Shown here piece after piece: positions 10,997-13,366 of a stretch of DNA of 39,406 nt; position 1 is the first letter of the stretch; the number at the start of each line of letters is the position of its first letter. The DNA comes from an uncultured Candidatus Peribacteria bacterium (lineage in GTDB: Bacteria > Patescibacteriota > Gracilibacteria > BD1-5 > JAGOOR01). Made by a program: the position numbers and the translations under genes. Below the pieces are notes generated by a model, which was given only the letters and a program-made list of their open reading frames with translations, was not told the origin of the DNA and did not search any database. The DNA lies in assembly GCA_964603225.1 (NCBI GenBank), contig CAZRUI010000002.1, positions 1 through 39,406 of the forward strand, given 5' to 3'.

Positions 10997-11506
10997 ATGG
11001 TTAAAACACTCTCATCAGCTCCGGAAATCCCAGAACTCATGACAGCCAAAGAAGCTGCTGATCATATGCGTATCCCTCTTGCTACTGTATATTATCTCGC
11101 ACAAGAAGGGAAAATACCATCGATACGAATCGGTGGCAGATTGCGATTCAAAAAAGCAATAATTGATAGCAAGATACTTCAAAATGAAGAACCAGAAGCA
11201 CACGTGCCCCATGTGAGATTACAGATAGCAGAAGGTGCGATGCACACACTCGTCCGAAAACAGCTCAGAGCAGAAGGTATGGGCATCATGCTCAATCCTC
11301 CAGAAGCAGAGACGGATACTGTTATTACTGATTGATCAGGACCTATTGACGACACTTTTCGTGGCCAAACTATCTTCATACTACCTGACACTGATCCAAA
11401 TACTATTGCTCTCCATGTGAGAGAGGGACAACCAGTGACTCTGACAACAATACAACACGTCTCGCATCCAGAAACACTTAGAAAACTTCTTGGACTCGCA
11501 TCCTAG
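10997..11506 (+). CDS. Excisionase/MerR-superfamily helix-turn-helix DNA-binding protein with an uncharacterised C-terminal domain (one UGA-Gly)
   Basis: MTAKEAADHMRIPLATVYYLAQEGKIPSIRIGGRLRFKK is the HTH_17 / excisionase-family pattern. The ORF-track ATG at 10967 overlaps a TATAAT box (10963-10968), so the start is placed at the next in-frame ATG, 10997. TGA at 11333-11335 is read through to TAG at 11504-11506. Confidence 0.65.
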
Positions 11507-11507
11507 A

Positions 11508-11535
11508 TTGACTTTCAGAACAACTCCCCTACAAT
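11508..11535 (+). promoter_or_regulatory. Sigma70-type promoter of the metK leader
   Basis: TTGACT (11508-11513), a 16-nt spacer and TACAAT (11530-11535), about 8 nt upstream of the riboswitch P1 strand. Confidence 0.6.
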
Positions 11536-11543
11536 ACCCCTAC

Positions 11544-11662
11544 CTTATCAAGAGCAGGCGAGAGACGAAACTCTACGACCCTGCAGCAAGTTCACACGTT
11601 TGTGTGATAGTGCTCCACTTTCGATAGATAATTGGTTCATCTATAATACTTGGTAAGATAAG
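11544..11662 (+). promoter_or_regulatory. SAM-I (S-box)-like riboswitch aptamer
   Basis: CTTATCAAGAGCAGGCGAGAGAC...GCAGCAA...GTGCTCCACTT...(P4-like hairpin ATAGAT/ATCTAT)...AAGATAAG resembles the S-box consensus CUUAUCAAGAG.GG.GGAGGGA...GGCAAC...GUGCCAAUUCC...AAAGAUGAG. P1 is CTTATC/GATAAG. It lies directly upstream of metK, the classical target. Confidence 0.6.
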
Positions 11663-11683
11663 AACTTTTTCTTATCTTTTTTT
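11655..11683 (+). terminator. Intrinsic terminator / expression platform of the metK leader
   Basis: AAGATAAGAA (11655-11664) pairs perfectly with TTCTTATCTT (11669-11678) around a 4-nt loop. TTTTT follows and the metK ATG starts at 11684. Confidence 0.7.
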
Positions 11684-12658
11684 ATGTTCAAAACCGCTGA
11701 ATCCGTGTCTCCAGGACACCCAGACAAAATGTGCGATCAGATCTCTGACGCCATCCTCGATGCCTGCCTCGTGCAGGATCCTCTCGCTCGTGTCGCTATC
11801 GAAACCGTAGGTGGTCATGGCTCAATCGTCGTTATCGGAGAGCTCACCACGACTGCTTTTGTCGATGTGAATCCTATTGCAAAACGTATCTGCTGAGAAA
11901 ATATCGGTGTCCTCGTCAATATCGTCCAACAATCTCCAGAAATCGCGCAAGGCGTCGATACTGGTGGAGCTGGTGATCAGGGTATCATGGTCGGTTACGC
12001 TACTCGCGAAACACCGAACTACATGCCACTCGAATACGAGCTCGCACGCAGACTCAATGAATTCCTCTGGAAACTCCATCCAAACGATGGTAAAACCCAA
12101 ATCACCCTCGATGGAAATAATCTCGTCGCCGTGGTTGCTTCTTGGTGTGGCACTCCGCACGATATACTCCGTGAAGAAGTCACAGAATTTCTGAAAAAAG
12201 AAGAGCTCCTCAAGGGTCACGATATCGCTGCTGCGAAGCTCCATCTCAATCCTGCTGGTGATTGGAATATCGGTGGATTCACTGCCGACACAGGTCTCAC
12301 AGGACGCAAGCTCGCTGTCGATAACTACGGACCTCGTGTACCTATCGGTGGTGGTGCATTCTCAGGAAAAGATCCAACGAAAGTCGACCGCTCTGCTGCC
12401 TACAAGGCTCGCCAAATGGCGGTGAAAATCCTCGAAGAAAAAGGGGCAAACGAAGTCATGGTACAAATCGCCTACGCTATCGGCTACCGCCACCCTGTCT
12501 CATGCGTCGCATGGATAGACGGTGTCGCAGAAAACCAGGACATCCTCCGTGATGACCTCACTCCTCAAGGCATCATCACCTCTCTCGACCTCTGCCGTCC
12601 TATCTACGAACAAACCGCTCGTTATGGGCATTTTGGACGGGGTTATATGTGGGGGTAG
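11684..12658 (+). CDS. metK: S-adenosylmethionine synthetase, short form (one UGA-Gly)
   Basis: FTSESV..GHPDK.CDQISDA.LDA-type N-terminus ([27 protein letters not shown]), plus GAGDQG.M.GYA, TGRK and [18 protein letters not shown]. ORFs 11684-11896 and 11987-12658 share a frame and join through TGA at 11894-11896. Confidence 0.93.
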
Positions 12659-12673
12659 GAAAATAATAAAAAT

Positions 12674-13366
12674 ATGGAACTAAACGAAATTGGTAGAAAT
12701 ATTGAATCTATTTTCCATCAAGTTATTGCTAAGAAAGAAGAATTAGAAACAGAATATGGATGGGAAAATACCGATGCAAGAATGACAATATTTAACAAAA
12801 TGGGCTCTATTTTAAGTGCCGTCAATACTGGTTATTTTTTGATGAATATATATTTAAGTGATATTAATTGGTGGAGACAATTTAACGCCTCCGTTCCAGA
12901 CAGGAATATTAAAAGAGCATTTTGGGATTTTGAAAGATTCTTCAAGATAGGAGTTATCCAAGATTTATTTTCTTGTGTGGAAAGTTCATTCCAAATATAC
13001 GTTAGAACAATTGATCCCTCTGCATGCTCCAATGGAACAACAGAATTTAAAAACATATATACATGGCTTTTAAATAAAACAAATTTGCAAGGTAGCATAC
13101 CCTTACTAGACCTGTGGAGAAATGTAAGAAATACTATGCATAATAATGGTACTTTTTTACCTTCGAATGGCAAAAATCAAACAGTGATATATAAAGAATG
13201 TTCATATGTTTTTAATAATGGGGAAGCAATAAGTTTTATGACTACCGAACTCATCCTTTTACTAATTGCGGATCTTTTAAAATTGGTAGAAAACATCGTT
13301 ATTTCGACACCTATAGTGTCTATTCATGATATAGAAGAGCTTAACTTCTCAGATTATCCTGAATAA
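12674..13366 (+). CDS. Hypothetical protein, A+T-rich ORFan with a HEPN-like Rx6H motif
   Basis: Intact 230-aa ORF starting 15 nt after metK. It is visibly more A+T-rich than its neighbours and has no TGA among its 10 Gly codons. It looks mostly helical, with WRNVRNTMHNNG at aa 148-159. No family was recognised with certainty. Confidence 0.6.
   Translation: MELNEIGRNIESIFHQVIAKKEELETEYGWENTDARMTIFNKMGSILSAVNTGYFLMNIYLSDINWWRQFNASVPDRNIKRAFWDFERFFKIGVIQDLFSCVESSFQIYVRTIDPSACSNGTTEFKNIYTWLLNKTNLQGSIPLLDLWRNVRNTMHNNGTFLPSNGKNQTVIYKECSYVFNNGEAISFMTTELILLLIADLLKLVENIVISTPIVSIHDIEELNFSDYPE

Follow-up and report, generated by a model that had tools for sequence, protein, structure and literature searches.

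A SAM-I-type metK leader below the Rfam cut-off in a code-25 Gracilibacteria genus, with a putative antiterminator on the P1 5′ strand

The metK locus and its host genome

The window is the whole 39,406-nucleotide stretch of Gracilibacteria DNA analyzed here, and it belongs to a genome of ~0.9 Mb that is 82% complete and reads TGA as glycine (code 25). Activated-sludge and wastewater runs contain the window's DNA. At the locus of interest, metK is preceded by a predicted promoter, a SAM-I-like element and an intrinsic terminator (Table 1). The MetK open reading frame matches all three Pfam S-AdoMet_synt domains; its ATG, at 11684, directly follows a run of five T residues, and we see no Shine-Dalgarno sequence. 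MetK in this genus is short, with 324 aa against ~380 aa in other Gracilibacteria, and its closest relatives outside the genus are Saccharibacteria proteins with at most 62% identity, the genes for which are preceded by canonical SAM-I leaders. Protein length and similarity suggest that the short form may have been acquired laterally. A 230-aa open reading frame (12674-13366), which matches no Pfam family, begins 15 nt past metK and would come under the same riboswitch if it is co-transcribed with metK.

We detected neither AdoHcyase nor MetE in the host genome (G000, 82% complete), which has a single PNP_UDP_1-family gene (G000:C64:911-1462). This gene content agrees with methionine auxotrophy and SAM synthesis from methionine that the cell imports; as an arbiter between ON and OFF logic of the leader, it does not decide. 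The TTGAC..TACAAT pattern of the predicted promoter is retained across the leaders of the genus, with differing spacer sequence, and from its position the transcript likely starts at ~11542, the first base of the proposed P1.

Table 1. Features of the metK leader and gene (positions in the window)
Feature	Position	Strand	Basis or remark
Predicted sigma-70-type promoter TTGACT-16-TACAAT	11508..11535	+	10/12 matches
P1 5′ strand (S1), ACCUUAUC	11542..11549	+	RF00162-aligned; proposed toggle among three partners
J1/2 AAGAG, including the G11 equivalent	11550..11554	+	Matches SAM-I consensus
P2 with GA-rich internal loop	11555..11583	+	Covariance-model alignment
P3, GCAA..GUGC binding-site motif kept	11584..11614	+	Covariance-model alignment
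J3/4 CCAC and pseudoknot strand UUUCG (11619-23)	11615..11623	+	Complementary to P2 loop
Sequestor hairpin AUAGAU/AUCUAU ("P4" of the initial annotation and of Rfam)	11624..11644	+	Competes with proximal P1
Proximal P1 3′ strand GAUAA-UU-GGU (GATAATTGGT)	11627..11636	+	RF00162, 35.1 bits; near-invariant in genus
Distal landing pad for S1, proposed antiterminator acceptor	11649..11662	+	Registers 1 and 2
Intrinsic terminator, 10-bp stem, loop CUUU, U-run	11655..11683	+	Covariation in genus
metK (SAM synthetase)	11684..12658	+	324 aa, one TGA=Gly codon

A SAM-I-type aptamer with two possible closing strands

Under permissive settings, the SAM-I covariance model RF00162 spans its full length (1-108) on 11542-11664 with 38.7 bits (E = 1.8e-7 for the region and 1.1e-7 for the genome). 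The initial annotation had called this an S-box/SAM-I-type metK leader by eye and proposed a covariance-model scan; the match is significant (E ~1e-7) and puts P1, CUUAUC/GAUAAG, exactly where that annotation had placed it, at a score below the RF00162 gathering score of 44.4 bits. Standard annotation overlooks the leader because of this score: at the gathering threshold the window has no RF00162 entry, and Rfam lists only a tRNA. The match is the sole SAM-I-like element found in the ~0.9 Mb host genome. RF00162 is the best clan member given by cmscan, which keeps only the best one.

The conserved SAM-I core is present, with P1 UUAUC/GAUAA, J1/2 AAGAG, P2 with its GA motifs and P3 GCAA..GUGC, and it lies in the 5′ leader of a methionine/SAM gene, metK being downstream at 15/15 metK-type genome loci. 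Judging from these sequence features, the metK leader is a genuine, sub-threshold, lineage-specific SAM-I-type variant.

The same model, run on 11520-11640 alone, gives a second full-length alignment with 35.1 bits, in which P4 is deleted and the P1 3′ strand is at 11627-34. In the window the distal-strand alignment outscores this proximal one (38.7 versus 35.1 bits), and distal-strand scores reach 41-44.5 bits in species with a distal helix of 7-8 bp (44.5 in L158). L165 carries a second element type of the genus, and there the alignment preferred by cmscan itself, with 45.6 bits, uses the proximal, P4-less P1. The junction is thus either P4-less, with the proximal P1, or has a P4 and a J4/1 of 11-17 variable nt, with the distal P1. 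A pairing of CCA (11616-18) with UGG (11651-53), considered as a way to shorten J4/1 in the distal fold, occurs only in the window's subtype and is absent from ACGAUAAGG-type leaders, and we rejected it.

S1 and the proximal strand form 5 bp, a 2-nt bulge and 3 bp, with GGU (11634-36) pairing to ACC (11542-44). In P4-less relatives a YGG comes before P1; the proximal P1 of the window has none. Its spacing, GUGCUC-CAC-(5-nt pseudoknot strand)-NNN-GAU, is 11 nt, as in L025 and L029. The segment CGAUAGAUAAUUGGU is near-invariant, yet its hairpin partner shifts in sequence and register; other species pair the 5′ strand of the sequestor hairpin as AUAAUUGG/CCAAAUAU. UUGG is conserved even when placed in the hairpin loop, and its conservation fits a pairing with the invariant 5′ ACC.

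The initial annotation had also noted that the P2/P3 region departs from the SAM-I consensus, and we can now say how. The changes in P2 are compensatory (C-G to U-A in L006 and L009), and the P2 loop CGAAA (11566-70) forms a pseudoknot with UUUCG (11619-23) that covaries in the genus (CAUAA/UUAUG in L155 and L165, AUAA/UUAU in L004). In P3, G stands at 11590, the equivalent of C47, and a 3x3 internal loop takes the place of the C47-G56 and C48-G55 pairs. Position 47 is G or A in 25/25 metK leaders of the genus; the genus's other element type and almost every relative have C there. SAM stacks its adenine on C47, and the C47-G56 pair caps the ligand site (bioRxiv 10.64898/2026.03.23.713157). A purine at 47 could tune affinity or change the ligand; the same sort of deviation at a ligand-stacking site earlier led to riboswitch classes with a changed ligand. 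Distally, P3 is hypervariable and carries lineage-specific A/U-rich tip inserts of up to ~150 nt above an invariant base; such inserts are seen in L011-L016, L148, L157, L162, L166 and L171.

Conservation in the genus

We compared 25 metK leaders from one code-25 Gracilibacteria genus (22 unique, with 18 distinct 3′ segments), comprising genome matches and additions from a pattern scan of metagenomes. One RF00162-type match each occurs in 16/19 genomes of the genus, in 15 of them upstream of metK, so the match is not due to chance. A core of ~80 nt is almost invariant, and divergence is found in the P3 tips, the linkers, the promoter spacers and the terminator arms. On the basis of this alignment, the leader is real and under selection. 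S1 (ACCUUAUC) is invariant in 22/22 unique leaders, and covariation cannot discriminate among its partners for this reason.

Sister species carry a second SAM-I-type element (L004, L155 and L165, e.g. L165:86-240) with the canonical C47 and its own terminator; a 5′ extension, CAUCU, pairs with AGAUG in the terminator arm. It precedes a 144-aa open reading frame without a Pfam match. The element of G006 is followed by no more than a 19-codon frame, and three convergent tRNA genes lie ~560 nt downstream of it (L004:668-942). We found no element of this second type in the window's genome.

Terminator and distal pad

The terminator arms are AAGATAAGAA (11655-64) and TTCTTATCTT (11669-78), separated by the loop CTTT and followed by T5 at 11679-83. 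CTTATC (11544-49) is complementary to GATAAG (11657-62), which sits within the 5′ arm. This pairing, the perfect 10-bp hairpin, T5 and the 5-nt distance to the ATG are as the initial annotation described them, and its point holds that the P1 helix it drew and the terminator, both using GATAAG, are mutually exclusive.

Across the genus, the hairpin 5′ arm contains GATAAG in 25/25 leaders and the hairpin is followed by U4-9. Its flanks covary (A-U/C-G/U-G at -1, A-U/G-C at +6, A-U/C-G at +7), so that the comparison of orthologous leaders suggested by the initial annotation finds a hairpin conserved with compensatory changes in the 25 leaders; the position preceding GAUAAG is not a conserved A and changes together with the terminator. 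The hairpin is kept with metK anywhere from 0 to 457 nt downstream (the ATG abuts the U-run in 9/22 unique leaders), and it is therefore a terminator and not a translation element. An insert of 330-445 nt separates the leader terminator from metK in several species (L002, L012, L013 and L014), and it encodes a 121-aa open reading frame in L012 and a hydrophobic one, also of 121 aa, in L014.

Upstream of and within the terminator lies a pad to which S1 can pair in two registers. In register 1, CTTATCAAG (11544-52; RNA CUUAUCAAG) pairs with CTTGGTAAG (11649-57; RNA CUUGGUAAG) over 9 bp (shuffle p 0.015); A9-G11 are paired in this register, and it overlaps the terminator base by 3 nt only. In register 2, S1 pairs with GAUAAG (11657-62) over 6 bp, and this is the strand that the initial annotation took as the P1 3′ strand. 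In ACGAUAAGG-type species the sole acceptor is GAUAAGG(U), nested in a longer terminator arm and not reaching into J1/2; the distal helix of these species is a clean, P1-like one of 7-8 bp that spares J1/2. We rejected GAUAAG-AAC-UUUUU (P1 with a nearby U-run) as a ligand-stabilized terminator, the U-run after P1 being absent in ACGAUAAGG-type leaders.

Logan contigs from four wastewater/sludge RNA runs, searched with 11300-12300, come from related species only and extend upstream beyond the promoter. One joins leader, spacer and metK. The contigs show neither transcript ends nor level, and nothing can be concluded from them on termination.

Predicted folding of the growing transcript

Stepwise minimum free energy (MFE) structures of the growing transcript were computed with RNAfold. 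When the RNA reaches 11636-40, the MFE structure is the P4-less aptamer with the proximal P1 (-27.8 to -27.9 kcal/mol). At 11646 the AUAGAU/AUCUAU hairpin is isoenergetic with the proximal P1 (-28.0 versus -27.9 kcal/mol) and frees the 5′ strand; such near-equal modeled energies at the first step are what a ligand-gated decision would need. The 9-bp S1/J1-2 helix forms at 11658-72 (-37.2 kcal/mol), and the terminator follows at 11678 (-41.2 kcal/mol), where a 7-bp remnant of the antiterminator coexists with a 9-bp terminator. The fold of the initial annotation has -35.3 kcal/mol and is the MFE structure at no transcript length.

In the genus, terminator states lie 1-6 kcal/mol below both closed-aptamer states. 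Nearest-neighbor energies were considered as an arbiter between ON and OFF and set aside: they do not discriminate because the terminator is favored equally in the relatives L029, L030 and L037.

Leaders of related bacteria

SAM-I leaders of the same class and order, and those before the Saccharibacteria MetK homologues, score 44-90 bits and have GCAAC in P3. Every readable platform among them has an antiterminator, and the metK leaders are OFF-type. The metK leaders of the genus differ from these relatives by the purine at position 47 and by a terminator arm with a perfect mimic of the P1 3′ strand. P4-less leaders of another family of the class, L025 and L029, score 55-57 bits. One leader of another family of the same order, L209 (G228), is a canonical OFF-type metK leader with P3 GCAAGC..GUAGUGC; it has a possible extra G beside the ligand site and is the one further case of a deviation at this motif in ~120 inspected leaders.

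In several of the relatives, S1 and J1/2 together pair with a downstream acceptor that lies over the terminator base. This helix has 11 bp in L037 (CUUUUAUCAAG/CUUGGUAAAAG), 12 bp in L021 and 11 bp in L026 (shuffle p ≤0.005 for all three), and helices of the same type were read by eye in L163, L034 and L040. A crude scan of 5′- versus 3′-strand complementarity, run on 78 leaders of the class and order, suffers from noise because G-U pairing lets U-tracts match; the long 5′-strand helices of L021, L026 and L037 are the only ones that stand out. The Rfam P1 is unambiguously proximal in L037 and L021 and also clearly proximal in L026. Since P1 of L037 and L021 is proximal, the helix of S1 and J1/2 is a 5′-strand antiterminator. 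The layout of the window is found in L037, where a small hairpin sequesters the P1 3′ strand and the terminator arm carries GGAUAAGU. Literature searches on riboswitches in Gracilibacteria and other CPR bacteria returned nothing relevant, which is no proof of absence.

Proposed regulation and alternatives

We favor, with a probability of about 0.6, a conventional SAM-OFF logic that works through an unusual toggle of the P1 5′ strand; both the ligand-binding fold and the direction of regulation are what we infer. The nascent RNA would first fold a P4-less aptamer from P2, P3 and the pseudoknot CGAAA/UUUCG, which ACCUUAUC and the proximal GAUAA-UU-GGU (11627-36) would close as the SAM-bound P1. 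With SAM bound, this P1 would be locked and the 5′ strand and J1/2 would stay occupied; the pad would then remain free, and the hairpin at 11655-78 with its U-run would form, terminate transcription and turn metK OFF. If SAM is absent, AUCUAU (11639-44) would capture the proximal strand, and the freed 5′ strand with J1/2 would move to the distal pad CUUGGUAAG/GAUAAG (11649-62), part of which belongs to the 5′ arm of the terminator. Pairing there, by register 1 (CUUGGUAAG) or register 2 (GAUAAG), would hinder the terminator and allow metK to be transcribed.

The initial annotation had seen no third strand beside P1 and the terminator, and had predicted SAM-dependent read-through. We find two such segments, the proximal P1 3′ strand at 11627-36 and the antiterminator acceptor at 11649-57. 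Once the proximal strand is included, aptamer, antiterminator and terminator can all be assigned, and read-through on SAM binding is not the best reading. The suspicion of a non-canonical platform stands without its ON consequence, the proposed antiterminator using the P1 5′ strand as in L037, L021 and L026. That annotation had also allowed that P1 might lie elsewhere beside a conventional antiterminator; the first part agrees with the 35.1-bit alignment at 11627-34, and the second does not, the antiterminator being of the 5′-strand kind. The "P1" of that annotation is most likely a second register of the 5′-strand antiterminator, and the ON prediction most likely arose because this register was taken for P1.

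The SAM-OFF model explains the invariance of CGAUAGAUAAUUGGU despite its changing hairpin partner, and it explains why the stretch between the hairpin and GAUAAG is long and variable; a true distal P1 would imply a J4/1 of 11-17 nt, also variable. Against the model are the weakness of the proposed antiterminator, the bulge and the missing YGG of the proximal P1, and the preference of Rfam for the distal strand. The lower energies of the terminator states, the invariance of S1 and the purine at position 47, which may point to altered ligand recognition, also count against it.

A true ON switch is unlikely. Here the ligand-bound state would be a four-way junction closed by CUUAUC/GAUAAG (11544-49/11657-62) with AUAGAU/AUCUAU as P4, and the ligand would keep GAUAAG from the terminator 3′ arm and thereby allow read-through, as in pbuE. 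The top RF00162 alignment does close with the distal strand, the distal helix has the length of a P1 (6-8 bp) and leaves J1/2 free, and the terminator arm fully contains this helix and is always more stable. GAUAAGG(U) is conserved past what the terminator stem needs (e.g. in L012), and a terminator that overlaps the aptamer generally makes an ON switch (PMC2258182). The reading would have to make the proximal P4-less fold, which is the first to form, unable to bind ligand, and to accept the long and variable J4/1. It is also opposed by the distal-closed fold never being the MFE structure at any transcript length in the window, by the same layout in L037, whose P1 is clearly proximal, and by the OFF type of all related metK leaders. 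Literature searches found no natural SAM-I ON switch, although this is no proof of absence. An ON switch would probably have to respond to a ligand other than SAM, for instance SAH or methionine, because induction of metK by SAM makes little physiological sense; the purine at position 47 in all 25 metK leaders, set against the C of the other element type and of nearly all relatives, counts in its favor. The full form of this idea, a natural SAM-I-derived ON switch with distal GAUAAG closure in which the 47-purine marks a changed ligand (SAH, methionine or another SAM-related compound), is slightly less probable again. If true, the changed ligand would signal a need for SAM synthesis.

We also think it improbable, to about the degree of that full form, that the leader is no small-molecule switch at all and instead a decaying or re-purposed aptamer, with the hairpin as a constitutive attenuator or as the 3′ end of a ~140-nt leader RNA, and with metK expressed by leaky read-through or from other promoters. 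The score under the Rfam cut-off, the changed binding-site residue, the terminator in all predicted ground states and the distance of 330-457 nt between hairpin and metK in several species would all suit this. Decay is hard to reconcile with a ~80 nt core that stays near-invariant while its surroundings diverge, with the retention of balanced alternative pairings, and with metK linkage kept in 15/15 genomes. Translational control, in which the hairpin 5 nt before the AUG would mask or expose the initiation region, draws on the ATG lying directly after the U-run in 9/22 unique leaders and on the lack of a visible Shine-Dalgarno sequence, and is very improbable given that hairpin and U-run keep the same character in leaders with metK 56-457 nt away, in some cases with another open reading frame between, and that the U4-9 run and a preceding A-tract are terminator features.

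Comparison with known systems

SAM-I/IV (RF01725) and SAM-IV (RF00634) riboswitches have a SAM-I-like core without a junction P4, as may be the case in the window. They differ from it in a P4 hairpin 3′ of P1 and a second pseudoknot, whereas the window's hairpin competes with the P1 3′ strand, with which it shares nucleotides.

The spermidine riboswitch is, according to Salvail et al. 2023 (PMC10853860), a rare SAM-I variant and an OFF switch for spermidine in which conserved binding-site positions are changed. It occurs in Bacillota, mostly with polyamine genes (speE, speD, speB, ldcC) and with one representative before metK. It resembles the window's leader in having changes at otherwise conserved SAM-I binding-site positions.

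The adenine riboswitch of pbuE (ydhL), a model transcriptional ON switch, is similar in that the terminator 5′ arm holds the strand that closes the aptamer and in that the terminator is more stable than the closing helix in its 5′ arm. It has one P1 3′ strand and no antiterminator, whereas the window has a proximal closing strand and an acceptor that pairs with J1/2. A pbuE-type terminator over the only closing strand, with no antiterminator, is thus not what we find, given the segments at 11627-36 and 11649-57.

With canonical S-box/SAM-I riboswitches (RF00162; B. subtilis yitJ and metE, T. tengcongensis metF) the leader shares UUAUCAAGAG, the GA motifs of P2, the pseudoknot between P2 loop and J3/4, P3 GCAA..GUGC, metK as a target and the intrinsic terminator. 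It differs from them in its sub-cut-off score, in the purine-rich internal loop that replaces C47-G56/C48-G55, and in its junction, where a true P4 is either absent or followed by a long J4/1. In the textbook S-box the P1 3′ strand takes part in the antiterminator; in the window, as we propose, the P1 5′ strand does so.

The closest likeness is to the P4-less Gracilibacteria leaders (L037, L029, L025, L021, L026 and L034). They have the window's spacing between P3 and the P1 3′ strand, a hairpin that sequesters this strand, and a CUUGGUAA..G-type acceptor that pairs with S1 and J1/2 and overlaps the terminator base. The antiterminator of these relatives has 11-12 bp with an overlap of 4-6 nt and goes with the canonical C47; that of the window has 9 bp and an overlap of 3 nt. 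The window also has an extra register, GAUAAG, which mimics P1; an antiterminator acceptor of this kind can mislead both the eye and a covariance model into inverted logic. The platform with the proposed 5′-strand toggle recurs in several Gracilibacteria families and would be useful for rules that derive ON or OFF logic from sequence.
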